From contig JBEKTZ010000004.1 of the NCBI GenBank assembly GCA_049515535.1, positions 201,462-265,461 on the forward strand: DNA of 64,000 nucleotides, read 5' to 3'. Source of the DNA: Candidatus Aminicenantales bacterium. GTDB lineage: Bacteria > Acidobacteriota > Aminicenantia > Aminicenantales > UBA4085. Each line of letters begins with the position of its first letter. The first letter of the stretch is position 1. Positions 1,727 to 47,724 of the stretch are shown piece after piece. The notes beneath the pieces are model-generated. The model was not told where the DNA came from. It worked only from the letters and a program-made list of their open reading frames with translations, and made no database searches. The position numbers were made by a program, and so were the translations under genes.

Positions 1727-1778
1727 GGCTACAAGAACCGCGCGTTCTTGGATATGATAAGGGCCGGGAGGGCCGGCG

Positions 1779-2900: not shown

Positions 2901-2901
2901 G

Positions 2902-3306
2902 ATGAAAAGGAAATCGAAACCAAAGGAAAGCCGGGCGACCTACCATATCAGCAGCGTTTCCCAGCGCTATGATATCCATCCCCAAACGCTGCGTCTCTAC
3001 GAACGGGAAGGTCTCCTTCGGCCGTCGCGCAGCGAGGGCAACACCCGTCTTTATACGGATGAGGATCTCAAGCAATTGGAACTGATCCTGACGCTTGTGA
3101 GGGATCTGGGCGTAAATCTGGCCGGTGTCGAGGTCGTTCTTCATATGCGGACGAAAATCGAACAGATCGAGGCCGGAGTCAATGAGATGCTGGAATTTCT
3201 CAAAAAAGAATATTTCTCAGGCGGGGAAAACGAGTTCGAGAGGAGACAAACCGACCTGATGCCTCTCTCCCAGACTCGGATCATGAAGATCGAAAGGAAA
3301 GATTGA
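2902..3306 (+). CDS. hspR: MerR-family heat-shock transcriptional repressor (HspR-like)
   Basis: N-terminal MerR helix-turn-helix (YHISSVSQRYDIHPQTLRLYEREGLLRPSRSEGNTRLYTDEDL). The gene sits immediately after dnaK-dnaJ with a 1-nt gap, as in canonical dnaK-dnaJ-hspR operons. Confidence 0.75.
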   Translation: MKRKSKPKESRATYHISSVSQRYDIHPQTLRLYEREGLLRPSRSEGNTRLYTDEDLKQLELILTLVRDLGVNLAGVEVVLHMRTKIEQIEAGVNEMLEFLKKEYFSGGENEFERRQTDLMPLSQTRIMKIERKD

Positions 3307-3371: not shown

Positions 3372-3596
3372 AGCATCAAACGCCAGATCCGGGATATTCA
3401 CGAGGCATTGGATGAAAAGGAAGTTTTTGTGTTAAAATGGCGGTTCGGATTGGATGACGATCAGCCCCTGACGCTCCGGGAGATCGGCGACAAGCTCCAC
3501 CTGACCAGGGAAGGCATCCGCCAGATCGAGCGGAAAGCGATGTACAAGCTGTCCCGGTCGAGAAAGCTTAGTCCATGGCGAGGAAATTTGAACTGA
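3372..3596 (+). CDS. Orphan ORF encoding only a sigma-70 region 4 (region 4.2 HTH) segment; possible sigma-factor remnant or small stand-alone region-4 protein
   Basis: The open frame SIKRQIRDIHEALDEKEVFVLKWRFGLDDDQPLTLREIGDKLHLTREGIRQIERKAMYKLSRS aligns to the RpoD C-terminus (VLxxRFGL...TLEEIGxxFxVTRERIRQIEAKALRKL). An in-frame stop lies at 3369-3371 and hspR ends at 3306. No sigma regions 1-3 can therefore be encoded upstream. The listed ORF uses a TTG start at 3408. Confidence 0.35.
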   Translation, partial: SIKRQIRDIHEALDEKEVFVLKWRFGLDDDQPLTLREIGDKLHLTREGIRQIERKAMYKLSRSRKLSPWRGNLN

Positions 3597-4357
3597 TGGC
3601 CGAGATAATTTGCTCCGCTTGCCAGGATACCGGCTGGGTCCTCGATGACGCGCAGGGCCACTCTCTGGCCAGACGATGTTCCTGCTTCATCGCCAAACAA
3701 GGCCGGATCCTGATTGCGAAGGCGAACATCCCAAAGCGCTATGAACGTTGCACGTTCGCCAATTTCGAGATCCACGATGAGACGCAGAGGGACGCCCTCA
3801 AAATATCCAAGAAAATGATCGAAAATTATCCCGTTCAGGAAATCGGGCTTCTTTTCATTGGTCCGCCGGGCGTCGGGAAAACGCATTTGGCCGTGGCCAT
3901 CCTGAATGAACTGATGAGCCGGAAAAACGCGGGCTGCGTGTTTTACGATTTCCGCGATCTCATCCGGGACATCCAAAGCACGTTCACCCCGGATTCGGTC
4001 CTCTCGGAATCCGATATCCTGGCGCCCGTATTCGAGAGCCAAGTGCTCGTCCTGGACGAATTAGGCGCGAAGAGGTCGTCGAGCTGGGTCGAAGAAACGA
4101 TATTTTATATCATCAACCACCGTTACAATCAAAAGAAAATGACGATCTTCACGTCGAATTTTCTCGATACGAGCGATGAAGAAGATCCGCGGCAGACGAT
4201 GTTCAAGAAGACCGATATCAACAAAAAGGGAGACGACTCGCTCGTCGACCGGATCGGCTACAGATTGAGATCCCGGCTTTATGAAATGTGCAAAGTCGTG
4301 GAAATTTCCGGAAAAGATTACCGCAAGATCGCCAAACAGGCCAGCTATCGGTTCTGA
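3575..4357 (+). CDS. DnaC/DnaI/IstB-like AAA+ ATPase (putative helicase loader) with N-terminal Cys cluster
   Basis: Walker A (GPPGVGKTHLAVAI) and Walker B (VLVLDELG) motifs are present, with the layout of DnaC-family loaders. An N-terminal CSACQDTGW...CSC cysteine cluster precedes them. The start overlaps the tail of the sigma-fragment ORF. Confidence 0.6.
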   Translation: MARKFELMAEIICSACQDTGWVLDDAQGHSLARRCSCFIAKQGRILIAKANIPKRYERCTFANFEIHDETQRDALKISKKMIENYPVQEIGLLFIGPPGVGKTHLAVAILNELMSRKNAGCVFYDFRDLIRDIQSTFTPDSVLSESDILAPVFESQVLVLDELGAKRSSSWVEETIFYIINHRYNQKKMTIFTSNFLDTSDEEDPRQTMFKKTDINKKGDDSLVDRIGYRLRSRLYEMCKVVEISGKDYRKIAKQASYRF

Positions 4358-14531: not shown

Positions 14532-15338
14532 ATGAAGAGAAAAGCCGCCGTCGCTGGATCTTTCTATCCCGGGAATCCTCAAGAACTTCGCCGAATGCTC
14601 AGCCGAATGGTCGATCTTGAAGCCCCAAAGACCAAGGCCCTGGCCGTGGTTTCGCCGCATGCCGGATTGATCTATTCCGGCCCAGTGGCCGGCGCGGTCT
14701 TCTCTTCCGTGGATCTGCCCGACACCATCCTCATCCTCGCGCCGAGTCACCGCCCGATGCGATCCCTCTTCGCCCTGATGAAGGATGGAGAGTGGGAAAC
14801 GCCGTTGGGGACCATCCCCGTCGCTTCCGGGCTGGCGGAGTCGATCCTGAACTCCTCGGATCTGGTGGCTACGGACTCGGCCGCCCATGCCCAGGAGCAT
14901 TCGCTCGAAGTCCAGCTCCCCTTCATCCAATACATCAAAACCCGATTTTCGATCGTCCCGATCAATATTTCGCATCTCGCCTCATACCGGGATCTGGAAG
15001 AACTGGGAGGAGGCATCGCCGCCGGTATCCTCGCTCAGAACGAGGAAGTGCTGATCGTCGCCAGCACGGATATGAGCCATTACGTCAGCCGGGCCGAAGC
15101 GGAACGGAAGGATTTCCTGGCCATCCGGAAAATCCTGGAACTCGATCCTAGAGGATTGTTCGACATCGTCGGATCCGAGGACATCAGCATGTGCGGCTAT
15201 CAGCCCGTCACGGCCGGTCTGATCGCGGCCAAGAAGCTCGGCGCGAAGAAGGCGGAACTCGTCAAATACGCGACGTCCGGCGACCGCACGGGAGATGATC
15301 GGGAAGTCGTCGGCTACGCCGGAATCAGGATTATCTAA
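14532..15338 (+). CDS. Memo1-like protein (AmmeMemoRadiSam system protein B family)
   Basis: GSFYPGNPQELRRML...AVVSPHAGLIYSGPVAGAVF is the conserved Memo/protein-B N-terminus. Confidence 0.7.
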   Translation: MKRKAAVAGSFYPGNPQELRRMLSRMVDLEAPKTKALAVVSPHAGLIYSGPVAGAVFSSVDLPDTILILAPSHRPMRSLFALMKDGEWETPLGTIPVASGLAESILNSSDLVATDSAAHAQEHSLEVQLPFIQYIKTRFSIVPINISHLASYRDLEELGGGIAAGILAQNEEVLIVASTDMSHYVSRAEAERKDFLAIRKILELDPRGLFDIVGSEDISMCGYQPVTAGLIAAKKLGAKKAELVKYATSGDRTGDDREVVGYAGIRII

Positions 15339-15396
15339 ACCCCCGGCCTTCATTGACTTCGCCTCGACTCCGGTTATAATATCCTACGGAACGATC

Positions 15397-16440
15397 ATGA
15401 AAAACCCCGGACTTCGAGACAAAGACAAGATCGTCCTGAAAGCGATCGTCGAGCATTATCTCAAGATCGGCAAACCTATCAGCTCGGGCTTCATTCATCA
15501 GAAAAGAGTTCTCTCCGATTCCCCCGCCAGCCTCAGGAACATCATGCTCAAGCTCGAGGAACTCGGTTTTCTTTCTCAGCCGCACGCTTCGGCCGGCCGG
15601 ATTCCGACGGATAAGGGCCTCCGTTTTTATGTCAACAGTCTCCTCGAGGAATCGCCGTTGTCGCTCGATCAAATGAGCCTTCTGACGAGCGATCTGTCCA
15701 TAAAGAAGGGGGACCTGAATTCGCTTCTTCATCGGATCTCGCTCCACCTGGCCGACCAGTCGGACAGCCTGGGTTTCGTCCTCTCGCCGCGCATCTCCAA
15801 GATCCATTTTCATCATCTCCGGTTCATCAAGATCGCCGAAAACAAGGTGATGATCATCCTTGTGACGTCGTTCAACGTCGTCCTGACGGAAATCGTTTCG
15901 ACGGAAACCTATTTCGACCAATCCGAGCTCGACCAGGCTTCGCAATACATCAACCAGAATTTTCACGGCAAGAACCTGCTGCTCGTCCGGGACCGCCTGC
16001 TCGGCGAGCTTCCCAAATATCAATCCAAGTTCGAGCAGGCGTTCAATAAGCTGATGTCCCTCATCAAGGACTCGATCGTTCAGGAAGACATGGAGAATCC
16101 CATCATCCTCCAGGGAACGGCCAGGCTCATCGATAAGTTCGAAACCTTCGACATGGCCAAAATGAAGTCGCTGTTCCAGAACTTCGAGGAAAAAGCCAAT
16201 CTGGCGAAGCTCCTTTCCGATTTCATATCCCTTGACCGGGTGAAAGTGCTCATCGGCTCCGAGTCCAACCTGCCGATCATTTCGGACTGTTCGCTCGTCC
16301 TCTCCCATTATGGAGACGAGAATCAGGTCATGGGCTCCCTGGGCATCATCGGGCCGAAGCGGATTCCCTATAAAAAGATCATTCCGCTCGTCGACAATGT
16401 CGCCAAAAGACTGAGCCGGACGATCAGCCAAAACCACTAG
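15397..16440 (+). CDS. hrcA: Heat-inducible transcription repressor HrcA
   Basis: Length and position directly upstream of grpE fit HrcA. N-terminal winged helix (KDKIVLKAIVEHYLKIGKPISSGFI). Start trimmed from the upstream-extended ORF to MKNPGLRDK. Confidence 0.75.
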   Translation: MKNPGLRDKDKIVLKAIVEHYLKIGKPISSGFIHQKRVLSDSPASLRNIMLKLEELGFLSQPHASAGRIPTDKGLRFYVNSLLEESPLSLDQMSLLTSDLSIKKGDLNSLLHRISLHLADQSDSLGFVLSPRISKIHFHHLRFIKIAENKVMIILVTSFNVVLTEIVSTETYFDQSELDQASQYINQNFHGKNLLLVRDRLLGELPKYQSKFEQAFNKLMSLIKDSIVQEDMENPIILQGTARLIDKFETFDMAKMKSLFQNFEEKANLAKLLSDFISLDRVKVLIGSESNLPIISDCSLVLSHYGDENQVMGSLGIIGPKRIPYKKIIPLVDNVAKRLSRTISQNH

Positions 16441-16457
16441 AGAAGGCGAAGGAACAC

Positions 16458-17153
16458 ATGGATATCGAAGACGAAAAAGAGCAGGAAGAAGATCCGGGGG
16501 AAGACACGGGACACCAGCCGGACGCGGATTCCGCCGGGGACGCCCCGGAAGACGAAAAAGAAAAGGGAACCGCGACGAAGAAGGCCGCGAGCGAAGAACA
16601 TGGCGGGCATGATCAACATGAAAAAGCGGATCATGAGGACGCTAAATCCTTGAAAGGAAAGCTCCGGAAGAAAGAGCATGAGATCAAAAACCACAAGGCG
16701 GAAATCGAGGAATTGAGAAAAGAGAAAGCCGAGATCAAAGATAAATTCCTCAGAGCGCTGGCCGAGATGGACAATCAGCGGAAGAGGCTCGAGCGGGAGA
16801 AGAGCGAGTTTTATCAGTTCGCTCTCAGCGATCTCCTCAAGGAAATATTGCTGGTTCTCGATAATTTCGAAAGAGCCCTGAAGAACAGGGATCAAACGGA
16901 TGACAAAAGCTTCCAAGAAGGCGTCGAGCTCATCTCTAAGCAGTTCCAAGATATGATCCGGAAACAAGGCCTGACTCCTGTCGGAGAGGAACATCAGAAA
17001 TTCGATCCCTCGGCCCACCATGCGGTCCTGACCGAAGAATCCGATCAAATCGATGAGCCGGAAATCGGCGAAGTGCTCCAGAAAGGCTACTTCCTCAACG
17101 ACCGGCTTCTCCGTCCCGCCCTGGTCAAAGTGATGGTTCCCAAAAAGAGCTAG
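16458..17153 (+). CDS. grpE: Nucleotide exchange factor GrpE
   Basis: Acidic N-terminus. Coiled-coil segment, then RALAEMDNQRKRLEREK...DLLKEILLVLDNFERAL and a C-terminal beta domain (GYFLNDRLLRPALVKV). Confidence 0.88.
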   Translation: MDIEDEKEQEEDPGEDTGHQPDADSAGDAPEDEKEKGTATKKAASEEHGGHDQHEKADHEDAKSLKGKLRKKEHEIKNHKAEIEELRKEKAEIKDKFLRALAEMDNQRKRLEREKSEFYQFALSDLLKEILLVLDNFERALKNRDQTDDKSFQEGVELISKQFQDMIRKQGLTPVGEEHQKFDPSAHHAVLTEESDQIDEPEIGEVLQKGYFLNDRLLRPALVKVMVPKKS

Positions 17154-17154
17154 A

Positions 17155-18723
17155 ATGGGCCCCATCATCGGCATCGATCTCGGCACGACGTATTCCTGCA
17201 TGGCCCACCTCGCGGGAGGGCAGCCGCGCGTCATTCCTAATCTGGAGGGGTCCACGACGACGCCGTCCATGGCGGCGTTCACGGCATCGGGGGATACCCT
17301 GATCGGGAGCATCGCCGCGAGACAGGCCGTCACGAATCCCGCAATGACGCTGTACGCCGTCAAGCGGCTGATCGGGAAAAAAGCGGGGTCTCCGGACGTC
17401 CAGAAAATCCGGAAGAGATTGCCGTACAAGCTGGCCGAAGCCCCGAACGGCGATGTCCTGATCGATATCGGGAACCGGATGATCACCCCCCAAGAGGTCT
17501 CGGCCTTGATCCTCGCCTACCTCAAGAGATGCGCCGAGTCCTATTTCGGCGAAGACATCATGGATGCGGTCATAACCGTCCCCGCGCATTTCGGCGATCA
17601 CCAAAGACAGGCGACCAAAGACGCCGCCGCCATCGCCGGGCTGAACGTCCTCCGTGTCATCAACGAGCCGACCGCCGCGAGCCTGGCCTTCGGCCTCGAC
17701 CAGAAGAAGAACGGCCGAGTGGCCGTCTTCGACATGGGCGGAGGGACGTTCGACATCACCCTGCTCGAGATCCATAACGGCGTGTTTCACATTCTTGCCA
17801 CGAACGGCGACTCCTTCCTTGGCGGCGAGGATTTCGACCAAAAAATCATCGACTGGTTCGTGGAAGAGGCGAAAAAAGAGCTTGGCATCGATCTCTCGGG
17901 CGACTTGTTCGCCCTGCAGAGAATCAAGGAGGCCGCGGAGCGGGCCAAGCGGGAGCTTTCGTTCACTCACGAAACCGAGATCAACCTGCCGTTCATCCAC
18001 GCCGCGCCGAGAGGTTCGGGTCATTTCCGCAAAGTGATATCGCGGTCCCTCCTTGAAAGCCTCACCGCGGATCTCGTCGAAAGGCCGTTTTCCCTGGTTG
18101 AACGGACTCTCGAAGAAAGCGGGCTCAAGCCGGGAGGGATCGACCACGTGATCCTCGTCGGAGGGCAGACGCGCATGCCGCTCGTCCGCGAGCGCGTTTC
18201 AAAATTCTTCAGGAAGAAAATTCACGAGCATGTCCATCCGGATGAAAGCGTCGCCCTGGGGGCGGCCATTCAATCCGGAATCCTGGAGGGAGAGCTGCGC
18301 GACCTTGTCCTGCTTCTGGACGTGACATCGTTCGCCCTCGGCATCGAGACCGAACGCGACGGCTACGAAAAAATCATCGAGAAGAACGCCACGATCCCCT
18401 TGAAGAAGGCCAAGGCCTTCACGACGGTCGAGAACAACCAGCGCCAAGTCAAAATCCATGTTTTGCAGGGCGACGGACCGCGCGCTTCGGACAGCGTGTC
18501 ATTGGCCAAGTTCGATCTCATCGGCCTTCTGCCGGCCCTGGCCGGAATCCCTCAAATCGACGTGACGTTCGAGATCGACGCGGACGGCCTGGTCAAGGTA
18601 TCGGCCAAGGATGCCTTGTCGGGCAAGGAGCAGAAGATCGTCGTCCGGCCCTCTTCGGGATTGAGCCGGCAGCAGATCAACAGCCTCCGGTTGAAGGCGC
18701 GGGATAAAGAGGCGAAGACGTAA
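17155..18723 (+). CDS. Hsp70-family chaperone paralog lacking the C-terminal alpha-helical lid (522 aa)
   Basis: Nucleotide-binding-domain motifs [24 protein letters not shown] and INEPTAAS, plus the interdomain linker LLLDVT and a beta-sandwich SBD. The protein ends ~25 aa after the SBD (...[23 protein letters not shown]), whereas the window's dnaK continues ~130 aa further. It sits in the dnaK position of an hrcA-grpE-X-dnaJ operon. Confidence 0.85.
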
Positions 18724-18727
18724 AGTC

Positions 18728-19858
18728 ATGGCCAAAAAAGATTATTATGAGGTGCTGGGGATTCCGCGGAGAGCCGCAGTCGACGACATAAAGAAAGCTT
18801 ACCGGCAAAAGGCATTGAAACACCATCCCGACCGCAACCCCGGGAATAAAGAAGCCGAGGAAATGTTCAAAGAAGCGGCCGAGGCGTATAGCGTCCTCGG
18901 CGATCCTCAAAAACGGTCCCTCTATGATCAGTACGGACCCGACGGACTCCGGGGCGAAGCGTTCTCGGGATTCAACGCGACGGTCTTCGAGGACTTCGAG
19001 GACATCCTCGGGAATATTTTCGGTTTTAATTTCGGCTTCGGGGATGTTTTCGGCTCCGGAACGAGACAGAGAGGCTCCTCGTCCCAACGCGGCCGGGATC
19101 TGGCTCTGGAGATAGAAATCACGCTCGAAGAGGCCGCGGCAGGCGTCGCCAAGGACATTTCCCTCCACCGGGCGGAGCCTTGTCCTTCGTGTCAGGGAAC
19201 GAAGTTGCGGCCGGGAACAAAGAAATCGATCTGTTCTTCATGCGGCGGCCGCGGGCAGATCCGCCATCATCAGGGTTTCTTCACGTTGGCAAGGACCTGT
19301 CCGCAATGCGGAGGGAGCGGAGACATCATCGCCACGCCTTGCGATGAATGCCGCGGGACTGGCCACATGCGGCAAAAAAAAGCGCTGAATGTCCGAATTC
19401 CGGCGGGTATCGATAACGGATCCCGGCTCCGTATCCAGGGGGAGGGGGAAGCCGGGGACGGGGAGGGGAGAAGGGGAGATCTTTACATCGCCATCAAGGT
19501 CATGACGCACGATTTCTTCGTGCGTGAGCAGAATCATCTGTATTGCGAAATCTCGATCGCGTTTGTCCAAGCCGCGCTTGGCGTAACCATCGAAGTTCCC
19601 ACGCTCGAAGGCGCCGAGAAGCTCAAGATTCCCCCCGGCACGCAATCCGGCGAGGTTTTCCGGTTAAAGGGCCGGGGGATCAAAGACCTGGAGAGCCGAA
19701 GGCTCGGCGACTTGCTCGTCAAGATTCAAGTGAAAACCCCGGAAGACCTGTCCAAGGAACAAAAGGGCGTGTTGCGCCAGCTGGCCGAGTTGCGCGCTGA
19801 AAATCTGGATTTCATCGACCGGGAGACCGTGATGAAAGAAAGACGTCGCGTCCATTAG
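18728..19858 (+). CDS. dnaJ: Co-chaperone DnaJ (second copy)
   Basis: J domain DYYEVLGI...HHPDRNP, a G/F region and four CxxCxGxG zinc-finger repeats. It starts 5 nt after the Hsp70 paralog. Confidence 0.9.
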
Positions 19859-37669: not shown

Positions 37670-39001
37670 GTGAACACCATGACGAAAGAATTGAAAGACG
37701 CCAAGGAACCGGCGAAAGAGTTGAAAGAATTCAGCCTGATCGAATTGGAAAGCAAAGAAACGAAGGAATTGATCAAGATCGCCAGTCAGATCGGGCTTCC
37801 CGACGAGGAGATCGAGAAGGACAACCGCCATAACCTCGTCTTCAAGATTCTTGAAGCCCAGGCCAAGAAGCAGGGACTGCTTTTTTCGGAAGGCGTACTC
37901 GAGTGTCTGGAGGACGGGTTCGGGTTTCTCCGGGCTCCCGAATTCAGCTATCTGCCAAGCCAGGACGACATTTATGTCTCGCCGTCGCAGATCCGAAAAT
38001 TCCAGCTAAGGACGGGCGACACGCTCTCCGGCATCGTCCGGCCCCCGAAAAACGGCGAAAAATATTTCGCCCTGATCAAGATCGAAGCGATCAATTTCAT
38101 GGAGCCTGACATTCTCATCGATTCCCGAAGAAACGTCCATTTCGAGCAGCTGACCCCGGTCTATCCTCATGAAATGATCAAGCTCCAGGACGGCAATCCC
38201 AAGAACCTGAACGCGCGCATCATGGAGCTCATGACGCCCATCGGAAAAGGTCAGAGAGGCCTGATCGTATCGCCCCCCCGGGCGGGGAAGACAACGCTGC
38301 TGAAGACCATCGCCAAGTCCATCGAGAAGAATCATCCGGAAATTTTTCTGATCGTCCTGCTCGTCGCCGAAAGGCCCGAGGAAGTGACCGATTTCCAGCG
38401 GAGCGTCAACGGCGAGGTCGTCGCCTCGACGTTCGATGAGCCGCCCGCCCGAAACGCTCAAGTGGCGAACATCACCCTCGAAAAGGCCAAACGCCTCGTC
38501 GAGATCAAGCGTGATGTGGTCATCCTTCTCGACAGCATCACCCGCTTGGCCAGGGCGCACAACGCCATCATTCCTCCGTCGGGCAAGGTCCTCTCCGGAG
38601 GCATAGACGCCAACGCCCTGAACAAACCCAAGAAATTCTTCGGCTCCGCGCGCAAGGTCGAAGAAGGGGGCAGCCTGACGATCATCGCCACGGCCTTGAT
38701 CGACACCGGCAGCCGGATGGACGAAGTCATTTTCGAGGAGTTCAAGGGCACGGGCAATATGGAAATCAACCTCGACCGCCGGCTGGTCGACAAACGGACA
38801 TTCCCGGCCATCGACATCAACCGGTCGGCAACGCGCAAGGAAGAGCTGTTAATCGAAGAAGCCGATCTCAACCGGATCTGGATCCTGCGCAAGGTGCTAA
38901 GCCAACTCTCGGAAGTCGAAGCCATGGAACTGCTGATCGACCGGCTGGGGAAGACAAAGACCAATCTGGACTTCCTGAACGCGATGAGCAAAGGGCTTTA
39001 A
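37670..39001 (+). CDS. rho: Transcription termination factor Rho
   Basis: N-terminal OB/CSD RNA-binding region ([17 protein letters not shown]). RecA-like ATPase with P-loop [11 protein letters not shown]- and R-loops. Confidence 0.93.
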
Positions 39002-39175
39002 AAAGACCGAGATCAGACCGCCGGCGTTCGGGTCGCCCAAAACGGGACTTATGGAAGCCGTTCCCGGCTTTCGTATCGCCGGCCCGCATTTCCTTATTTT
39101 CCATTCCGCCAAAATAAAGAGTATAATCCATCTTGATTTTTGTGATGATTGAAAATGAAGGAGGATCTTTTTCCC

Positions 39176-40006
39176 ATGAATAAAACGAGTTTGAAAGCCT
39201 CAGCTTTAATTATATTGTTGGCTCTTATGATCCCGGCGGCGTCACGGGCGCAAAATGCGGCGGTGGAAAGCCGATGGGCCAGCGGGAACATCAAGATCGA
39301 CGGCGTCGCCAAAGAATGGGACGGTATTCCGCTTTTGACCTGGGATAAGGCCGAAATCCAATACGCTTTCCAAAACGACGCGGACACGCTTTATATCCTG
39401 CTCATATTCAAGAATCCTAAGTACCGCAGCAGCGTCGAAGAGGAAGGGCTGGTCGTTTATTTCGACGAAGCGGGGAAAACAAGAAATGATTACGGCATCA
39501 GCTTCCGTAAACGCCGGATCACGGCGGGAGAGCTGCTCAATCTCCTGGCAAAAGAAGGCCCCGTTTCTGACGATCAAAGGACGCAGGTGCAGTCGAAGCC
39601 CTTCTATGATTATTATGACAGCGAAGTAAAAGTCGCAAAGCTGGAATCGTCCCAAACACCCGGTGCAGGCGATGGGCGACGGGCGATCTTCCGCTATGCC
39701 CCGCAACAAAAAACGATGGTGTATGAGTTCGCCATCCCGCTAAATCGAGTTTCTACGGCTGCGGCTGGAGTCGGAGGGCAGCCCGGGGCGACTATCGCTC
39801 TCGGCTTCGAATGGGGAGGGCCAACGGAGGAACAGAGAAAAGCAATGATCCGCTATCAAGGCGGGAAGGCGAGCATATCCAACGAAGAGATCGACGGTGG
39901 AAAAACCGACCTTGTTATGCAAAAGACAGGATCTTCGGACCGCATTCCAACGAAATACTTCTTTTGGAACGAAGTACGGTTGGCTACTAAATCTCCGAGC
40001 GATTAA
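39176..40006 (+). CDS. Hypothetical secreted protein
   Basis: Signal peptide (MNKTSLKASALIILLALMIPAASRA). No recognisable catalytic motif. AGGAGG RBS upstream. GC content lower than the surrounding core genes. Confidence 0.55.
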   Translation: MNKTSLKASALIILLALMIPAASRAQNAAVESRWASGNIKIDGVAKEWDGIPLLTWDKAEIQYAFQNDADTLYILLIFKNPKYRSSVEEEGLVVYFDEAGKTRNDYGISFRKRRITAGELLNLLAKEGPVSDDQRTQVQSKPFYDYYDSEVKVAKLESSQTPGAGDGRRAIFRYAPQQKTMVYEFAIPLNRVSTAAAGVGGQPGATIALGFEWGGPTEEQRKAMIRYQGGKASISNEEIDGGKTDLVMQKTGSSDRIPTKYFFWNEVRLATKSPSD

Positions 40007-40402
40007 CCGAAACAAGCACGCCGGAAAAGGCGACGAGGCGACAGTCAGCTATTACTTTTCGCTTTTTTGAAATAATATAAAACCGATAATCTTAAATTCT
40101 GGGAAAAAGACCTCATATTGATAAAAATATTATCCTAATCGTTAATCCGCGATTAATCGTAATATGAATTGAGCCCAATAGAAGGGGATGGTTTTCCACA
40201 TATGCACAATTTGTTGTCTGCGATTTTTTGCACAATAGGGGAATAGTTGTAACAGATTGAATATAAAAGAAATAAAAAGGATATATAAAATGAGTCGCAT
40301 AACGATTATTATGTAAACTAACTAATTCTTTGCCATAATCTCCTAAAAAAGAGACGCCTAAGGCTAAATAGAAAGGTTTTTTCCTTCCCCCAAAAAAAGC
40401 GC
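40007..40402. other. ~400-bp AT-rich non-coding block (roughly 30% GC against ~60% background) with short palindromes
   Basis: No ORF of 60 aa or more on either strand. Contains the palindrome CGATTAATCG at 40150-40159, flanked by TAATCG repeats, and a near-DnaA-box TTTTCCACA at 40192-40200. It is immediately downstream of parB. Confidence 0.6.
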
Positions 40403-41209
40403 TTATTGGTGCTGTTTGAGCTTAGAAATCAAATCTTCGAGGATACGGATGATTTCCTGCCTGTTGACCGATTCCTTTTTGAATTCAATGCGAAGGCTGA
40501 AAGATCGATCTTCCTTCGGACTATAATTAAAAACATAAGATTTCTGTTTCTTCTTGTCTGCGTCCTTACTTTTCAGGAGTTTGGTCAAGTCGCGGGTGTC
40601 CTCTCTTTTTAAACCTCGCTCTTTTATATTGTCGAGGAGCGATGTCATTTCGTTCTCATTCTTGAGTTTGGAAATCTCGATCAAAATGCTTCGATTTTTA
40701 TCTAATGAATGGGTTTGGCAAAGACGGCGTATCGAAGCGGGTATCTTGCTGATGTTGATGATTTCCGTAATGGTGGATCGCGCTTTGCCGATTTTCTCGG
40801 AAATTTGGCTATGGCTATAACCATAGGTATCCATTAAAGCCTTTAACCCGTCCGCTTCTTCGAAGATGTCAAGGTCTTTGCGCTGAAGATTCTCTATCAG
40901 CGAGATTTCCATGGCCTCGTTATCAGTCGCGTTCATTTCAATACAGGGTATGTCCTTGAGGGCCGCGTTTTTGGATGCCACATAGCGGCGTTCTCCGGCG
41001 ATGATCTCGTATTTATCGCCCTTGGGACGGACGATGATCGGCTCCAGAACCCCCTTGGCTTTGATCGACGTCACCAACTCTTCGATATTTCCTAGCTCGC
41101 TGCGCGCTTGGCGGGGGTTAGGCTCAATGCGATCCAACGCAATGAGGCGTAACAGCGGAGCGCTGGCTTTTTTGGAAATGAACTCGACGAAATGCGTGTC
41201 ATGCCGCAT
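40403..41209 (-). CDS. parB: ParB/Spo0J-family partition protein with divergent C-terminal region
   Basis: ParB N-terminal box (LEPIIVRPKGDKYEIIAGERRYVAS, GxRR motif) and an HTH (SHSQISEKIGKARSTITEII). The C-terminal ~110 aa are Lys/Glu-rich and not recognisably Spo0J-like. Start trimmed to MRHDTHF just after the parA stop. Confidence 0.75.
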   Translation of the reverse strand: MRHDTHFVEFISKKASAPLLRLIALDRIEPNPRQARSELGNIEELVTSIKAKGVLEPIIVRPKGDKYEIIAGERRYVASKNAALKDIPCIEMNATDNEAMEISLIENLQRKDLDIFEEADGLKALMDTYGYSHSQISEKIGKARSTITEIINISKIPASIRRLCQTHSLDKNRSILIEISKLKNENEMTSLLDNIKERGLKREDTRDLTKLLKSKDADKKKQKSYVFNYSPKEDRSFSLRIEFKKESVNRQEIIRILEDLISKLKQHQ

Positions 41210-41237
41210 TCCGATGGTGTCCGGAAGTCCTGATCGT

Positions 41238-42002
41238 TTAGTTTTTTGCACGGTCCAAAATCTCCTCGGCCACTTTTTTGTATTGGAGAGAGCCGATCGA
41301 AGCGGCCGCATAAGTGAAGATCGATTCCTTATAAGCCGGGCTTTCTTCAAGCTTGACGCTCTTAGAGATATGGGTATGAAAGACTTTTTCGCCGAAGACG
41401 CGTTGAATGCGCTCGACCACGTCTCTAGCGATATTTGTCCGGGTATCATGCAAAGTGATCAAAACCCCGAGGATTTGGAGTCCGGGATTCGCTACTCGTC
41501 TCACCTTCTCGATCGTCTCGAGAAGATCATCCGTCCCCTCGAGACTGAGGAACGATGATTGAATAGGAATCAGGAGATGTGATGCCGCCACCAAGGCATT
41601 CAAGGTAATCAAGCCGAGCGTCGGCGGCGTATCGATGAAGATGAAATCATAGCGTTCGCGGATCGGCTCGATGATGTCTTTCAAACGAAAATGCCCGTCA
41701 ATCTGACCCAGCAAAGACGCTTCAAGTTTGGCCATGGATGTCCTGGCGATGGCGACATCCAAACCTGGGACAGTGGATTTCATGATCACGCTTTGGATTT
41801 TCATTTCAGGACGCATGAGAACATCATAAAGAGACATTTCGCTGCGATCAGGATCTTTGACGCAGAACTTTGTGCTATGGCCCTGAGAATCGGTATCGAC
41901 AAGGAGAATGCGGCAGCCGCTGAGCGCTAAAGCGGCCGATACATTGACGGCTGTCGTGGTCTTGCCGACTCCCCCTTTCTGATTGGTTATGGCGACGATC
42001 AC
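41238..42002 (-). CDS. parA: ParA/Soj-family partition ATPase
   Basis: Deviant Walker A NQKGGVGKTTTAVNVSAALA, Walker A' LLVDTDSQ and Walker B FIFIDTPP. Confidence 0.88.
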   Translation of the reverse strand: MIVAITNQKGGVGKTTTAVNVSAALALSGCRILLVDTDSQGHSTKFCVKDPDRSEMSLYDVLMRPEMKIQSVIMKSTVPGLDVAIARTSMAKLEASLLGQIDGHFRLKDIIEPIRERYDFIFIDTPPTLGLITLNALVAASHLLIPIQSSFLSLEGTDDLLETIEKVRRVANPGLQILGVLITLHDTRTNIARDVVERIQRVFGEKVFHTHISKSVKLEESPAYKESIFTYAAASIGSLQYKKVAEEILDRAKN

Positions 42003-42395
42003 AATTCATGACTCCGAAAAATTTCTTGAGGATACATTTTAAAAAAACCCTGAACTACCATAACGAATATCGCCGAAAAGTTCAAGCTTTTATTTTTGGG
42101 GATGTCGGCCGGCCGACATTTGATGTAACTGTCGAGATATCAAATAATTAGGAGATAAATAGTGACGAGCGGCGAGAACGGGATTCACGGAATAAAAGAA
42201 AAATGGTTCGAAGATATCGCCAAAGGGAGTTCATCCGGCGCCTGATTTTTTCAGATCGATTTATAATACAATTAATCTATAGGAATAGTAATATATTATT
42301 GAAGTCTCTGCTATCTTTGCATATAATGCGTTGGAGAAAATTGAAAAGAATTTTATGAGTCATTCACGATGATAAAAATTTCATAATAAGGCTGG
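42003..42395. other. ~390-bp AT-rich divergent intergenic region between parA (-) and the permease (+)
   Basis: Low GC and no ORF of 60 aa or more. It contains the 18-bp palindrome at 42102-42119 and AT-rich stretches that could serve as promoters. Confidence 0.6.
42102..42119. repeat. Perfect 18-bp palindrome ATGTCGGCCGGCCGACAT about 100 bp upstream of parA; candidate centromere-like or operator site
   Basis: Read directly from the sequence. It is GC-rich and embedded in an AT-rich promoter region. It does not match the canonical parS (TGTTNCACGTGNAACA). Confidence 0.5.
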
Positions 42396-43787
42396 TTGAT
42401 TTTGAATGAGCTCGATCGAAAACTTGGCCTTGCGGATTCCGTTTTCCTCGTTATAGGATCCGTTTTTGGATCCGGCATTTTTCTCACAACCGGCATCATA
42501 GCCGGCTATATTCCCTCTCCGGGTCTGATCTGTATCGTTTGGATTCTCGGAGGAGTCCTGACTCTGTTGGGGGCCTTGGCTTATGCCGAACTCGGAACAT
42601 TATTTCCCGGGGCGGGAGGACCTTACATCTATCTCAGAGAAGCCTACGGCCCATCGGTCTCATTTCTTTACGGCTGGACGTTTTTTTGGGTGATAGGAGG
42701 AGGAGGGATCGCCGCGCTGGCCATGGGGTTCGCCGAATATGCAGGGGTCCTGGTTCCTGGACTATCAGCCGATAAACTTCTTCTAGATTCAGGCCTCGGA
42801 CCGATCAAAGTTCATTTGACCGGCGCCCACTTCACGGCCGTTTTTTCGATCGTGGTTCTTTCCTTGCTCAACCTTTTCGGTGTCAAATCAGGGGTCCTCT
42901 TCCAGAACTTCATGACGGTCTTGCGCTTCCTTGCCCTGGGCGCTTTTGTCGCTTTCGGTCTCGTTCTCGGACGCCATCCCGGCCTGCTTAATCTGCATCC
43001 GCTATTTCCGAAAGGCCCTCTCCCCTCCTGGACTTTGTTCGGCGCCGCCTTCTTGGCCGTCGTATGGACCTATGACGGTTGGTATTCCGTGAACTGCGCC
43101 GCGGAAGAAGTCCGGAACCCGCAACGAACGATTCCTCGCTCGCTTGTCCTGGGCACGATAGCTGTTACCGTGCTTTATTTGATGGCCAATATGGTTTATA
43201 GTATAGCTCTTCCGGTGGAGAATATGCGTGGTGTCGTCCGGATCGGTGAACTCGCGGCTCTCCGTCTTTTCGGGCCCGGCAGCGCCCTGTTTTTTTCGGC
43301 CTTGATCGCCGTCGCTATTCTAGGTTGCCTGAGCGCGAATATTCTGTACTGCCCTCGAGTCTCATTCGCCATGGCTCGGGACGGCTTATTCTTCAAAAGT
43401 CTCTCGGTCGTCCATCCCCGGAAACGCGTTCCTTCGAACGCCATCCTGGCCCAGATGATCTGGTCGAGCTTGCTCTGCTTTTCAGGAACGTATCAGGGCC
43501 TCATCGAATATGTGGCCTTCGCCCTGGTCCTCTTCTTTGCCGCCACGGGCTTTTCCGTGTTCGTTCTCCGGCGGAAGATGCCGGAGCGGGAACGTCCCTT
43601 CCGGACATGGGGATATCCCGTTTTACCGGCTCTTTACATCGTCTCCAACTCGGCCATTTTCTTTGCCGTGATCATAGCCCGGCCGCTCCAGGCCTTGGCC
43701 GGAGCGATCCTGATCGCGGCCGGTCTGCCGGCGTATTTGCTCTGGATGAAAAACAAGCGGATCCGCGCCGATGGAGCAAGGGCATGA
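42396..43787 (+). CDS. APC-superfamily amino acid/polyamine permease
   Basis: 12 predicted TM helices and the N-terminal APC motif GSVFGSGIFLTTGIIAGY. TTG start as listed. Confidence 0.8.
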   Translation: MILNELDRKLGLADSVFLVIGSVFGSGIFLTTGIIAGYIPSPGLICIVWILGGVLTLLGALAYAELGTLFPGAGGPYIYLREAYGPSVSFLYGWTFFWVIGGGGIAALAMGFAEYAGVLVPGLSADKLLLDSGLGPIKVHLTGAHFTAVFSIVVLSLLNLFGVKSGVLFQNFMTVLRFLALGAFVAFGLVLGRHPGLLNLHPLFPKGPLPSWTLFGAAFLAVVWTYDGWYSVNCAAEEVRNPQRTIPRSLVLGTIAVTVLYLMANMVYSIALPVENMRGVVRIGELAALRLFGPGSALFFSALIAVAILGCLSANILYCPRVSFAMARDGLFFKSLSVVHPRKRVPSNAILAQMIWSSLLCFSGTYQGLIEYVAFALVLFFAATGFSVFVLRRKMPERERPFRTWGYPVLPALYIVSNSAIFFAVIIARPLQALAGAILIAAGLPAYLLWMKNKRIRADGARA

Positions 43788-45556
43788 GACGCGTCGTGAA
43801 AGTTCTTCCGGAAGGACTGGATTTGAGAGCCGCACCGGGCGAACTTCTGTCCGATGTCATGGAGAGAGCCGGTATCCCCCTCAGCTTGTATTGCGGGCGC
43901 CGGGGCTTATGCGGCAAATGCCGCGTCGAAATCGTCCGCGGAGCGATTCCTGAGGCGGATGAATTCGAGCGAAGTCTCATGGCGCGAGGGAGTCTTCCCA
44001 AAAACCATCGTCTCGCCTGCCGCTTCCATGTCGATAGCGATGTGTCTGTCCGCGTTCCTCCGGGATCTCGGATCCTCCAAATGCCCGTATTGAGCCGGGG
44101 AACCGGACGCTCCGTCGCGTTGGCTCCCGCCATAAAAAAAATAAGGTTCTCCTTATCGAGACCCGGCCTTGTCTCCGCCGATAGCGTCTTGGATTCGATC
44201 CATCTCCAATTCCCCGGGATCGCGCTTCGCGGGCCCTCTCTGGAAACGTTGCGGCGATTGTCCCGCCACGCTCTCGTGGAAAGCGGGCCGGCCAGAGACA
44301 TGACCGCTGTCATCCATGCCGATGCAGAATTGCTCGATATAGAGCCGGGAGACACAACCGCCAGGAATTTCGGCCTTGCCATTGACCTGGGAACGACGAC
44401 CGTCGTCGTCGAACTCCTGGATTTGAACTCGGGGACCTCTCTGGGCTCAGTGACCGGGCTCAACGCTCAGGCCCAATTCGGAACCGACGTCGTGTCGAGA
44501 ATCACGGCGGCTTATATGGACGCGGGAAAACTCAAGGAACTGCGCGCCTCCGTCGTCGCGGGCCTCAACGCCATGATCGGCGTGTTGATCGCTGAAAATC
44601 AGGTGTCTTCGGACGCCGTGTATGAAACGGTCCTGGCCGGCAATACGGCCATGAACCACCTCTTTCTCGGCCTGTCCGTCGCGACACTGGCCGTCGCTCC
44701 CTATCATGCCGTCTTCAGCGTCCTCCCGGCGCTTCCGTCGGCCGAGACGGGGCTCACCGTCAACCCTCTCGGAAAAGTTTATCTCGCTCCCAACATAAAA
44801 AGTTTTGTCGGCGGAGACATCGCCGCCGGACTGGCCGCGGTCGGCATGGACCGTCAAAAAGGAAATTTCCTTTTCGTCGATTTAGGAACGAACGGGGAAA
44901 TCGTCATCAAAAAAGGGACCCGTTTTACGACAACGTCGACGGCCGCCGGACCCGCTTTCGAAGGAATGGCGATCGGTTGCGGCATGCTCGCTCTTCCCGG
45001 CGCCGTTTATAAGGCCCACTATGGAAAAAATCTGATGATTGAGACTATCGGCGGGTTGCCGGCGCGCGGCATCTGCGGCACGGGCCTCATCGACCTCGTG
45101 GCAGGCGCCTTGGACAAAGGCCTCGTTTCTTCCCGGGGAAATGTCCTGAATCCATCCAGGACAATCGCCGTCACGAAGGATATCTCCTTGATCCAGAAGG
45201 ATATCCGCGAGATCCAATTGGCCGTCGCGGCCATAAAGACGGGCATCCGGATGTTGCTCGGGGAGAACAGGATGACGACCGGAGATCTTGACGGCATTTA
45301 CGTAGCCGGAGCGTTCGGAAATTACCTCAGCATTGATAACGCCGTGAAGCTTGGCCTTCTCCCCCGTTTCAACCGCCGTAAGATCCATTTCGTCGGCAAT
45401 ACCTCGGTGGCCGGGGCCAAGGCCCTCCTCTTGTCGCTCTCCGAACGGAGGCGCTGTGAGAAAATGGCTCAAAAAATTCGTCATGTCAGTTTGGCAAAGG
45501 GCGACGAATTTCAAGCGGCCTTCGTCGAAGCGCTGGAGTTCAAAGCCTGGAGTTGA
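43785..45556 (+). CDS. RACo-type reductive activator of corrinoid proteins (plant-type 2Fe-2S ferredoxin domain plus ASKHA ATPase domain)
   Basis: N-terminal ferredoxin Cys pattern YCGRRGLCGKCRV...LACRF. The C-terminal region has ASKHA motifs (LAIDLGTTT, FVDLGTNGEIV, AGAFGNYL). The ATG overlaps the permease stop (ATGA). Confidence 0.65.
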
Positions 45557-45592
45557 GTCAGGAACGCAAATTCCGCCTGAAGGAGTCTTTCC

Positions 45593-46258
45593 ATGGAATT
45601 GAAGAATCGTCTGTTGCGAATGATGGCCGCGGCCATCGTCGAAGGTGACAAGGAAACGGCCGAAGTCCTGGCCAGGAAAGCCTTGGCCGAGAAGCTCGAT
45701 CTCCACGAGGTCATCGATAAAGGATATCTCCCGGGCATCCAAAAAGTCGGCGAACTCTGGGAGAAGGGGGAGTATTTCCTGCCCGAGCTCATCACCAGCG
45801 CCGAATGCATGAAGGCGGCCATGGCCGTTCTCAGACCGTCGCTGGAAGCCTCCCACGCGAACAGCTTGTCCCGTGGAAAAATCGTTATCGGGACGATCGA
45901 AGGCGATATTCACGATATCGGGAAGAACCTGGTCGCGTCGATGCTCTCGGCCAATGGGTTCGAAGTCATGGATCTGGGCGCCGACGTCAAGCTGACCCGA
46001 TTCATCGATAAAGCCCAGGAAACGCAGGCGGAGATCATCTGCCTGTCCGCCCTGCTCACGACAACGATGCTCAATCAGGGGCGTCTGATCGAACTGCTCA
46101 AGGAGCGCGGACTTCGCGAACGGTTTAAAGTGCTCGTGGGCGGCGCCCCTGTGACGCGGAAATGGGCGGCGGATATCGGGGCGGACGGCTACGGGGAAAA
46201 CGCGCCGAGCGCCGTCAAACTAGCCCTGGAGATCAGCCCGAAAAGAGGCCAATTATGA
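45593..46258 (+). CDS. Cobalamin-binding corrinoid protein (B12-binding domain with N-terminal helical cap)
   Basis: DxHxxG motif (GDIHDIGKN) followed by a Rossmann-like B12-binding fold. Layout matches MtmC/MtbC/MtgC-type methyl carriers. Confidence 0.75.
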   Translation: MELKNRLLRMMAAAIVEGDKETAEVLARKALAEKLDLHEVIDKGYLPGIQKVGELWEKGEYFLPELITSAECMKAAMAVLRPSLEASHANSLSRGKIVIGTIEGDIHDIGKNLVASMLSANGFEVMDLGADVKLTRFIDKAQETQAEIICLSALLTTTMLNQGRLIELLKERGLRERFKVLVGGAPVTRKWAADIGADGYGENAPSAVKLALEISPKRGQL

Positions 46259-47724
46259 TCCGGGCCAAGCGTCCCAAGGTCGAGCTCCTCAGCCGGACGT
46301 TCGTCGAGAAGATCATCGGTGAAGCTCTGCTTCTCCTGGAGCGGCAAGGCGTATTTGTCGAGAACGCGGAAGCCCGCGCGCTCTTCAAGCTCGCGGGAAT
46401 GTCCGTTGACGAAACGCATTTCCGGGTCCTTATCCGACAAAAGCTCATCGAGGAATCCCTTGCCTCGACGCCGTCGGCCTTTAAAATCTATGACCGCTCG
46501 GGAAAAAAGGCCTTTACCATAGGACGCGATCATGTCCATTTTGACCCGGGCTCGGCGGCCGTCAAAATCCTTGACCATACGACGCGGCAGGAAAGGAGGC
46601 CCGAGACGGGCGACTTGATCCGGCTGTCCCGGCTGACCGAGGCCTGCGAGCACATCCATTTTCAAAGCACCGCTCTCGTCAGCGGCGATGTCCCGGAGAA
46701 TATCGCCGACAGCTATCGGCTTTTCCTCAGCCTGCAATTCTCATCCAAACCGATCGTGACCGGAACGTTCCGGACGACGGGTTTCCGGCCGATGTTCGAG
46801 ATGCTGGCCGCCGTCCGCGGCGGGAGCGACGAGCTCCGGCGAAAACCGCTGGCCATATTCGACGCCTGCCCCTCCCCTCCCCTGAAATGGAGCAACCTGA
46901 CCGCGCAGAGCCTCATTGACTGCGCCCGGGCCGGTATTCCTTCCGAACTCATTTCCATGGGACTGACGGGCGCGACCTCTCCGGTAACGATTGCCGGCAC
47001 ACTCGTTCAGCACGTGGCCGAGAACCTGGCCGGTCTGGCGATCTGCCAGCTCGCGGGCAAGGGCGTGCCCGTGATCTTCGGCGGTTCGCCGGCAAGCTTC
47101 GACATGCGCAAAGGCACGACGCCCATGGGGGCGATCGAAACGATGATGATCGATATGTCCTATGCTCAAATCGGAAAACACCTCGGCCTTCCGACGCACG
47201 CTTATATGGGTCTGAGCGACGCCAAGATCAACGACTCGCAATCCGGATTGGAAACGAGCATGGGCGCCGTCCTCGCGGCGCTGGCCGGCATCAACGTCGT
47301 ATCTGGCGCCGGGATGGTGGATTTCGAGAGCGCGCAGAGCCTCGAAAAAATTCTGATCGACAATGAAATCTGCGGCATGGCCTACCGGCTAATCGAGGGG
47401 GTCGCCCAGCGTGATGAACCCCTGGCTCTGTCCCTTTTTGAGAAGCTCGGTCCGGAAAGCCAGTTCCTGACCATGCCCCATACGCGGAAATGGTACAGGA
47501 TCGAACACATGCTAACGTCCTTGGCCGATCGCGATACTTATGACGCCTGGGCCGCGCAGGGCGCGAAATCCATGGCCGATAGGGCGCACGAGCGTATCGA
47601 CCAGATCCTCGGCGGGACCGCCCCGAACCTGCTGAGTTATGACCTTCAGAAAGAACTCCGGAGGATCATGCTCGACGACGCCGTGATCAACGGATCCGGA
47701 AGCCTTCCGGAGATCCGGTTTTAA
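46255..47724 (+). CDS. MttB-superfamily methyltransferase, non-pyrrolysine member (quaternary amine:corrinoid methyltransferase-like)
   Basis: About 490 aa with MttB-like TIM-barrel layout and no in-frame amber codon. Its start overlaps the corrinoid-protein stop (ATGA). The methyl-donor substrate cannot be determined from sequence. Confidence 0.65.
   Translation: MIRAKRPKVELLSRTFVEKIIGEALLLLERQGVFVENAEARALFKLAGMSVDETHFRVLIRQKLIEESLASTPSAFKIYDRSGKKAFTIGRDHVHFDPGSAAVKILDHTTRQERRPETGDLIRLSRLTEACEHIHFQSTALVSGDVPENIADSYRLFLSLQFSSKPIVTGTFRTTGFRPMFEMLAAVRGGSDELRRKPLAIFDACPSPPLKWSNLTAQSLIDCARAGIPSELISMGLTGATSPVTIAGTLVQHVAENLAGLAICQLAGKGVPVIFGGSPASFDMRKGTTPMGAIETMMIDMSYAQIGKHLGLPTHAYMGLSDAKINDSQSGLETSMGAVLAALAGINVVSGAGMVDFESAQSLEKILIDNEICGMAYRLIEGVAQRDEPLALSLFEKLGPESQFLTMPHTRKWYRIEHMLTSLADRDTYDAWAAQGAKSMADRAHERIDQILGGTAPNLLSYDLQKELRRIMLDDAVINGSGSLPEIRF

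Follow-up and report, generated by a model that had tools for sequence, protein, structure and literature searches.

The stretch of DNA analyzed here (hereafter, the window) comprises 64,000 nucleotides of a Candidatus Aminicenantales bacterium (contig JBEKTZ010000004.1, positions 201,462 to 265,461 of the forward strand) and carries a partition operon, parA-parB, set between two long intergenic regions, IG1 downstream of parB and IG2 upstream of parA (Table 1). The two genes are tightly joined, with the GTG start of parB overlapping the parA stop by 14 bp; this GTG, at position 41251, is most likely the true start, the resulting 282 aa being the length of nearly all close homologues. In agreement with a preliminary description of the window, Pfam assignments place rho on one side of the operon and an amino-acid permease on the other, and dnaA, gidA and rsmG are absent among the annotated open reading frames (ORFs) of the window, where no DnaA domain-IV signature was found either. 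Genes for XerC, XerD and FtsK are likewise absent from the 64 kb.

Table 1. Features of the parAB locus and of the surrounding window (positions are those of the window).
Feature	Position	Strand	Description
parA	41238-42002	-	254 aa; Pfam AAA_31 and CbiA; Soj-type deviant Walker A ATPase without N-terminal helix-turn-helix (HTH)
parB	40403-41251	-	282 aa, GTG start; Pfam ParB_N and HTH_ParB
IG1	40007-40402		34.3% GC; separates parB from the hypothetical gene, which is convergent with it; site of dif and of the DnaA-box-like block
IG2	42003-42395		35.1% GC; separates parA from the permease gene, which is divergent from it
dif (28-bp XerC/XerD site)	40292-40319		+ strand reads GAGTCGCATAA-CGATTA-TTATGTAAACT
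DnaA-box-like block	40188-40245		TTTTCCACA at 40192-40200; second box degenerate in the window genome
18-bp perfect palindrome ATGTCGGCCGGCCGACAT	42102-42119		core TGTCGGC-NN-GCCGACA; candidate lineage-specific parS or operator
Predicted parA promoter	42057-42085	-	-35 TTGAAC at 42080-42085, 17-bp spacer, -10 TATGGT at 42057-42062
Permease-operon promoter-like site	42299-42327	+	TTGAAG-17-TATAAT; 10/12 positions in the consensus scan
Secreted hypothetical gene	39149-40006	+	apparent variable cargo between dif and the rho 3' end
rho	37670-39001		beyond the hypothetical gene, on the parB side; assigned by Pfam
Amino-acid permease	42396-43787		divergent from parA; assigned by Pfam
AGGGGAG left of dif, toward dif	6555, 9258, 9387, 19464, 19472, 37080, 37618	+
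AGGGGAG left of dif, away from dif	14916	-
AGGGGAG right of dif, toward dif	43020, 46872, 46877, 51150, 57302, 61694	-	none on the + strand

The preliminary description had singled out this block as a GC-poor island in a background of about 60% GC. The background is measured here as 55.3% (over the 64 kb), and against it parA and parB are indeed AT-richer (50.2% and 46.3% GC, respectively), as is the neighboring secreted hypothetical gene (51.7% GC). The boundaries given there for the two flanks hold, and their GC content, put at about 30%, is somewhat higher by our measurement (34.3% and 35.1%). Windowed GC and codon-usage statistics, a check proposed with that description, identify parAB, the hypothetical gene and both flanks as the lowest-GC features of the window: GC content at third codon positions (GC3) is 0.59 for parA, 0.57 for parB and 0.58 for the hypothetical gene, compared with 0.74-0.77 for clpX, lon and rho and a mean of 0.685 (standard deviation 0.057) over the ORFs of the window. 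IG1 and IG2 are both the two longest and the two AT-richest of the 19 intergenic regions, which have a median length of 125 bp and average 53% GC. The two 400-bp windows of lowest GC in the whole 64 kb also fall within them, a deviation well beyond chance. Neither flank matches any Rfam family, even at E<=1, and at the gathering threshold the only Rfam matches over the window are two tRNAs, both located elsewhere. A sub-threshold match to ctRNA_p42d (39548-39605, minus strand; 26.5 bits against a gathering threshold of 50, E=0.0086) lies inside the hypothetical gene and is most likely due to chance.

A count of k-mers common to the intergenic regions of relatives yielded two flank elements that are better conserved than the genes themselves, a dif-like site in IG1 and a palindrome in IG2. 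The earlier expectation that the AT-rich flanks hold cis-acting sites was therefore borne out, one of them containing the conserved palindrome along with the parA promoter and the other the dif site of the chromosome. The latter follows the consensus TTAGTTkACATAA-N6-TTATGCGAC and is found downstream of parB in all Aminicenantia loci except one or two, with an 11-6-11 layout in which near-invariant 11-bp arms enclose a 6-bp center that varies freely across relatives. In the window, it is identical to the Escherichia coli dif at 20 of 28 positions, and its XerD arm, TTATGTAAACT, to that of the Bacillus subtilis dif at all 11 positions. Kono et al. (PMC3025954, with supplement) predicted dif sites for two cultured acidobacteria, at 2,622,908 in Koribacter Ellin345 and at 4,815,082 in Solibacter Ellin6076; a comparison with these gives 20-21 identities out of 28, with 10 of 11 in the XerD arm. 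No other match exists in the 64 kb at up to 6 arm mismatches. By these comparisons of sequence, the site downstream of parB is the XerCD dif of the chromosome.

Conservation of the locus was examined first in Candidatus Aminicenantes, whose metagenome-assembled genomes (MAGs) abound in ParB homologues of 70-83% identity. The gene order of the window is repeated on three contigs (257 kb, 701 kb and 1.04 Mb), with tig-clpP-clpX-lon-rho converging on parB-parA and a permease-RACo-B12-MTTB gene set diverging from parA. A scan of species-representative genomes added ~25 Aminicenantia loci, including one on the closed 4.28-Mb chromosome OY970261.1, with parB at ~1.487 Mb of 4.283 Mb; altogether, the same synteny is observed in ~30 Aminicenantia genomes (all relatives examined), on contigs of 0.26-4.28 Mb, with locus GC ranging from 35% to 67% and ParB identity down to 56%. 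The compositional offset is conserved as well. The GC3 of parA and parB is below that of rho, lon, the permease and RACo in every Aminicenantia genome examined, and in the most GC-rich of them it amounts to 0.81 and 0.84, respectively, vs. 0.97-0.98 for the neighbors. Since this deficit is kept in every Aminicenantia genome at any GC, it is not the trace of a recent transfer: the GC-poor parAB genes and their long AT-rich spacers reflect traits of the Aminicenantia lineage, not a foreign origin. The offset is not seen in the classes Vicinamibacteria and Thermoanaerobaculia.

These observations bear on the explanation put forward in the preliminary description, namely a horizontally acquired or plasmid-derived cassette with its own centromere, inserted between rho and the permease gene. 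Such a cassette would account for the concentration of the lowest-GC features of the window in this block, and for the pocket beside dif that does take up variable cargo (see below); moreover, plasmids typically combine a par operon with a site-specific resolution site. Against it stand the position, synteny and GC3 deficit of the locus, kept in ~30 Aminicenantia genomes of 35-67% GC, as well as the presence of the module in two further classes of the phylum. At the block itself, there is no tRNA nearby (the nearest is at 31889), no bracketing repeats and no second dif, and no integrase is found among the annotated ORFs of the window; the boundaries of a genomic island or of an integrative mobile element exploiting Xer (IMEX) were accordingly sought and ruled out for lack of a tRNA, repeats or a second dif-like site. 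A search of the plasmid database PLSDB, the blast check proposed earlier, retrieved no close ParB (tblastn, best matches 29-40% identical over partial length; no record reaches 60%) and, at the DNA level, no similar locus and only a 118-bp match to parA, the best sequence and fold relatives being instead chromosomal Spo0J/ParB, Noc and Soj. Finally, a polarity of short motifs resembling the FtsK orienting polar sequences (KOPS) converges on dif over the whole 64 kb (see below), which makes this dif the site of the chromosome itself. We consider acquisition as a cassette extremely improbable overall: as a recent event it is effectively refuted, and an ancient capture, preceding the radiation of Acidobacteriota, is a possible variant.

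The only part of the block that looks like variable cargo, outside the conserved module, is the secreted hypothetical gene, to judge from its distribution: a homologue at the same position occurs, out of ~30 relatives, only in L007 (50% identity). Its product has no NCBIfam family match, and the only Pfam match (DUF2283) is below the cut-off. The pocket between dif and rho measures from 134 bp to 3.3 kb and elsewhere holds unrelated genes (SnoaL-like, SBBP beta-propeller, Asp/Glu racemase, CDGSH), behaving as a hotspot of gene turnover in L007, L011, L012, L013, L024, L030 and others; neither phage or IMEX genes nor a second dif were observed there.

A much broader distribution emerged from a scan of metagenomes for the exact 18-mer of the palindrome, which returned at least 120 loci. 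Among the matches listed, a parA homologue is found beside the 18-mer in 79 of 120, and many of the corresponding ParB proteins are only 37-44% identical to that of the window. The source names of the listed loci are Vicinamibacterales/Vicinamibacteria, Thermoanaerobaculia and "Acidobacteriota", all named members, Aminicenantes included, belonging to Acidobacteriota. The order palindrome-parA-parB-dif recurs in Aminicenantia, Vicinamibacteria and Thermoanaerobaculia, and in 52 of the 54 loci with enough downstream sequence, dif follows the parB stop at a distance of 13-304 bp; by our own estimate, the chance of finding a dif near parB is ~5e-4 per locus. In some Vicinamibacterales, dif is inverted relative to parB with the adjacency kept, and the flanking genes of the other classes differ from those of Aminicenantia, being miaB-like and BFN-domain genes upstream and PTPS, LptFG or other genes downstream. 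Thus, the conserved unit is palindrome-parA-parB-dif, with a palindrome of 16-18 bp, kept across at least three classes while its surroundings changed. As a separate observation, a MiaB/RimO-like radical-SAM gene and a BFN (PF02577) gene always precede the unit on the same strand in Vicinamibacteria and Thermoanaerobaculia, the BFN gene ending ~45-60 bp before the palindrome (L092, L115, L135, L136, L186-L188).

A dif site is expected where the two replichores meet. The polarity of the surrounding sequence was assessed by ranking all 7-mers, in relatives only, by the consistency of their orientation toward the dif-like site on its two sides. The highest-ranked convergent 7-mer, AGGGGAG, is oriented toward the site in Aminicenantia relatives at a ratio of 60:3 on one side and 26:1 on the other (86:4 together); it is the core of GGGGAGGG and fits the E. 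coli KOPS pattern, GGGNAGGG. Applied to the window, the same 7-mer gives 13:1 toward dif (p=0.0009; strand vs. side of dif, Fisher p=0.0047), and 8:1 (p=0.02) outside the 20 kb common to relatives. Its orientation is independent of gene strand, as illustrated by the copies antisense to the plus-strand genes at 42.4-52 kb. The polarity is replicated in Vicinamibacterales (10:0 toward dif, in ten different sequence contexts) and in Thermoanaerobaculia (19:3, p=4e-4). Gene orientation points the same way to the left of dif, where 75% of coding bases are directed toward it, those of tig-clpP-clpX-lon-rho included, and in Thermoanaerobaculia it converges cleanly on dif. Taken together, these data make it very likely that the locus is the replication terminus; since dif marks the meeting point of the replichores, parAB and the only nearby candidate ParB site would then be located at the terminus. 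The preliminary description had allowed for an unusually placed chromosomal partition locus, an alternative now supported by the position of parAB beside dif, although a terminus had not been foreseen.

The opposite assignment, an ordinary origin-proximal soj/spo0J operon in which the AT-rich region with its DnaA boxes is oriC or a part of it and the dif-like sequence is incidental, deserves separate consideration. The operon parAB is classically treated as an "origin gene" by which to locate oriC (PMC2099444), and the ori-domain location of the par operon and parS is a conserved feature of chromosomal systems (PMC7022226). In addition, ~20 of 27 Aminicenantia loci contain, 95-130 bp from dif, two direct TGTGGAWAW motifs ~33 bp apart, in the form of CTGTGGATAW followed ~33 bp on by TTGTGCAnnTGTGGAWA, after a ~60-bp AT-rich spacer beside dif. 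The pair is absent, however, in L004, L014, L015, L018, L023 and most loci of the other classes, whereas dif is nearly universal, and DnaA boxes (with at most one mismatch) are at chance level in the window (7 in total vs. 6 expected), one of them lying in IG1 and none in IG2. The earlier description had named conservation of the locus next to oriC or dnaA in close relatives as the finding that would make it simply the native soj/spo0J; the locus is conserved, but neither dnaA nor dnaN lies within 24-40 kb of it. Nor does a DnaA signature occur in ~0.88 Mb of related loci, the two regular-expression matches (L155, L160) lying outside any ORF. We reject this assignment because an origin here would need the opposite polarity, with KOPS-like motifs diverging from the site instead of converging on it, and would make replication forks run head-on into tig-clpP-clpX-lon-rho and, on the left side, into 75% of the coding bases; its probability is accordingly very small. 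On the same grounds of box frequency, polarity and gene orientation, oriC was dismissed as the content of the AT-rich flanks. A DnaA-titrating or regulatory site is one possibility for the role of the DnaA-box pair at a terminus.

The two proteins of the operon are clearly recognizable. ParA (Pfam AAA_31, 3.6e-53) contains the motif NQKGGVGKTT, and its best PDB hits are the ParA of entry 8ray (7.8e-52), followed by Soj of Helicobacter pylori and Thermus thermophilus. ParB matches Pfam ParB_N (3.1e-25) and HTH_ParB (4.2e-14) and passes the cut-off of the TIGR00180 model (143 bits vs. 58); the Noc model TIGR04285 is its top-scoring NCBIfam hit, at 155 bits, and still fails the cut-off of 315. 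Its best PDB sequence hit is Thermus Spo0J (1.5e-35), and the CTPase motifs GERRY (GERR) and ENLQR are present. An AlphaFold2 model of mean predicted local distance difference test (pLDDT) 75.6 is matched by Foldseek to ParB and Noc structures, with a template modelling (TM) score of 0.86 and a root-mean-square deviation of 2.3 Å for the Caulobacter ParB-parS complex. By domains, motifs and predicted fold, ParB is therefore of the chromosomal CTPase type.

Within this general framework, the alignments show that ParB departs from canonical ParB at exactly its DNA-reading parts. The recognition helix reads GKARSTITEIINISKIP in the window protein vs. GK(A/E)RSTVANALRLLxLP in the aligned Thermus and Myxococcus chains, the subfamily form being GK(A/S)R(S/T)x(I/V)TE, with R158, T162 and E163 invariant in the subfamily and different from the canonical residues. 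The GHAR segment is replaced by DKNRS in the window ParB and by NRS or SKS across the subfamily. Two further features are specific to the subfamily: an N-terminal peptide, KRGLPxxxxMRHDxH(Y/F)VE, and a conserved C-terminal beta-beta-alpha domain, which corresponds to the last third of the protein that had been described as atypical and Lys/Glu-rich, rightly so by its composition (17% Lys, 11% Glu, 43% charged residues). A ParB-like gene of 247 aa, an orphan located directly after glyS, was also observed in some MAGs labelled Aminicenantes (L031, 5986-6729; L032, 2293-3036; L033, 737-1480); it has the same type of altered helix (GKARTTVTEMLEIANMP), with no parA, palindrome or dif nearby, and may be a paralogue with a separate role.

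The altered reading head is accompanied by the absence of the canonical parS, TGTTNCACGTGAAACA, which was found, at up to 3 mismatches, neither in the 64-kb window nor in any of 30 Aminicenantia loci. It is equally absent from a Thermoanaerobaculia locus and, at up to 2 mismatches, from a further 21 loci in other lineages that carry the palindrome. For comparison, 20 of the 32 non-acidobacterial ParB loci obtained in the same scan carry 1-8 copies of the canonical parS (p=3e-8 against 0 of 30 in Aminicenantia), and none of the 32 has the palindrome.

The palindrome provides a candidate replacement. The window contains a single copy of it, against a chance expectation of 0.06, and its core is present in ~24 of 27 Aminicenantia loci, at a position that tracks the start of parA (~80-380 bp upstream) irrespective of the presence of the permease gene. 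Blocks of the form CTTGmA...TATnnTA, with the same spacing, are conserved in ~28 aligned parA upstream regions and correspond in the window to the TTGAAC/TATGGT pair, the predicted parA promoter; the center of the palindrome lies ~60 bp upstream of the predicted transcription start. Some genomes (L012, L120, L131, L178) have 2-3 palindromes upstream of parA. The palindrome is regarded as a candidate parS or operator since ParB is the only DNA-binding protein consistently encoded beside it and since a few genomes carry 2-3 copies; that ParB binds it, as the parS or operator of the subfamily, is a proposal that we favor somewhat over its negation.

The exact 18-mer is also found in the absence of an adjacent parA. 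Some of these cases are truncated copies of the same locus, and Pfam analysis of the neighboring ORFs was uninformative for others. Several parA-less contexts recur (L077, L107, L095, with L102, L116 and L098; L070, L101, L140; L091, L132, L138). In one parA-less family, on contigs of 52-59% GC, a perfect DnaA box (TTATCCACA) is located 9-12 bp from the palindrome.

Such occurrences are in line with a more conservative explanation, according to which the adjacency to dif is a historical accident, the palindrome is the operator of an unrelated factor or autoregulatory, and the real centromeres, whether palindromic or not, are near oriC, as part of a classical ParABS system. The location of a gene need not equal the site of action of its product, and the palindrome is usually single and placed at about -60 from the predicted parA start, as is typical of a regulator site. 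On the other side of the balance, the adjacency of parB and dif (13-304 bp) outlasts the turnover of flanking genes and the inversion of dif in three classes, and this persistence, despite complete turnover of the flanking genes, speaks for selection on the linkage. Furthermore, the 2-3 palindromes upstream of parA in some genomes resemble centromere clusters, canonical systems keep parS beside parAB (in the 20 of 32 loci mentioned above), and no other regulator gene is conserved near the palindrome. On balance, we judge this explanation unlikely, without dismissing it.

The best explanation, which we hold to be probable, is that of a native, vertically inherited partition operon of Aminicenantia that belongs to a phylum-level ParABS variant, located at the terminus and provided with a probable parS of its own. 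A mechanism can be sketched from the general biology of ParB, which is loaded at a palindrome under the control of CTP and then slides over several kb. ParB, as a chromosomal-type CTPase clamp with a changed recognition helix, would read the palindrome instead of the canonical parS; loaded there, ~60 bp upstream of the predicted parA transcription start, it could repress or tune the promoter and could spread by sliding along a few kb of DNA, parAB and dif (~1.8 kb away) included. The Soj-type ParA would then act on a ParB complex located at the terminus. A functional coupling of the operon to the terminus is a tentative proposition, to which we assign distinctly less than an even chance. Somewhat less likely again is its most specific form, in which a partition complex assembles at the terminus, with ParB loading on the palindrome and covering dif, and ParA positions or separates the sister termini, or couples dimer resolution and division to them, instead of or besides origin segregation.

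Several observations weigh against this explanation. The GC3 skew supports a leading plus strand to the left of dif (~+0.03) and is ~0 to the right of it, where it is not reversed; a regression of GC3 skew by gene indicates that coding strand dominates the signal, the replication component alone being too weak to decide. Gene orientation in the window is mixed to the right of dif, with 51% of it toward dif. The DnaA-box-like pair and the AT-rich stretch beside dif, seen in most Aminicenantia, fit an origin-type or DnaA-regulatory element, and the pairing of partition genes with a Xer-type resolution site is a plasmid-like combination as well. As to the palindrome, a position at about -60 is also typical of an ordinary activator site, the sequence also occurs in contexts without parA, and the case for its binding by ParB, as it stands, is one of co-occurrence only. 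The evidence as a whole comes from individual loci and contigs.

A side-by-side comparison with known systems revealed, in each case, both similarities and substantial differences. The chromosomal ParABS systems of Thermus, Bacillus, Caulobacter and Myxococcus share with the window a parA-parB operon, a Soj-type ParA, a ParB with ParB_N and HTH domains and a nearby palindrome; the window system differs from them by the lack of a canonical parS, by the altered recognition helix and GHAR segment, by the N-terminal peptide and C-terminal domain of its own, and by a location at dif and the terminus, where chromosomal systems are usually in the ori domain. The Noc system of Firmicutes, with its Noc-binding sequence (NBS), is another case of a ParB-family CTPase re-targeted via changes in the HTH, and Noc structures are among the best fold matches of the window ParB; the latter, however, scores below the Noc cut-off, is paired with a ParA, has a palindrome of a different sequence and is acidobacterial. 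The membrane-targeting N-terminus of Noc is not evident in the window ParB, although no dedicated test was made.

With regard to XerCD-dif and FtsK-KOPS, the 28-bp site with its 11-6-11 layout and conserved XerD arm, and the converging G-rich polar AGGGGAG within GGGGAGGG, are alike; the site itself is ordinary, and what is new is its fixed neighbor, a par operon that ends within 13-304 bp of it in three classes. If the site of action of ParB is also that of its gene, the system might be viewed, speculatively and by functional analogy, as a terminus-dedicated DNA-binding system comparable to MatP-matS, although the proteins are unrelated and MatP uses many matS sites across a macrodomain, compared with the 1-3 sites found here. 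Plasmids such as P1, F and RK2 pair par with a multimer-resolution site, and the stability modules of these plasmids resemble our locus in having partition genes beside a resolution site; here, however, the genes are on multi-megabase chromosomes, surrounded by housekeeping genes, the site is the dif of the chromosome, and replication or resolvase genes are lacking. No paper describing the palindrome sequence, or a dif-linked or terminus-located parAB in Acidobacteria, was found in the literature.

Other features of the window were noted in passing. The operon divergent from parA (42396-47724) encodes the amino-acid permease, a RACo corrinoid activase, a B12-binding protein and an MTTB-family methyltransferase, a methylamine or betaine demethylation cassette that is syntenic across Aminicenantia. 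Two chaperone sets are present (11-3306 and 15295-19858), one in which dnaK-dnaJ precede a MerR/HspR-like regulator, the other forming a separate hrcA-grpE-dnaK-dnaJ operon. An IstB/DnaC-like AAA+ ORF (3575-4357) stands alone with no transposase beside it; its match to the Bac_DnaA ATPase family is just above the cut-off and much weaker than that to IstB.

Overall, chromosomal ParABS systems have been treated as machines of the origin domain, and here, in a phylum whose members are mostly uncultured and abundant in soil and sediment, the par operon is kept next to dif and encodes a ParB that does without the near-universal parS. Should ParB act at the place of its gene, a testable question arises about the segregation of the terminus and its coupling to XerCD/FtsK and division, and a system dedicated to that region would be the first chromosomal ParABS devoted to the terminus. 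Even if ParB acts elsewhere, the subfamily represents a natural experiment in the rewiring of ParB specificity, with a precise candidate site. A compositional "island" signal, as this locus illustrates, can be a conserved trait of a lineage. Practical implications include the use of palindrome-parAB-dif as a marker of the terminus in acidobacterial genomes and MAGs, as well as caution against placing oriC by parAB in Acidobacteriota.

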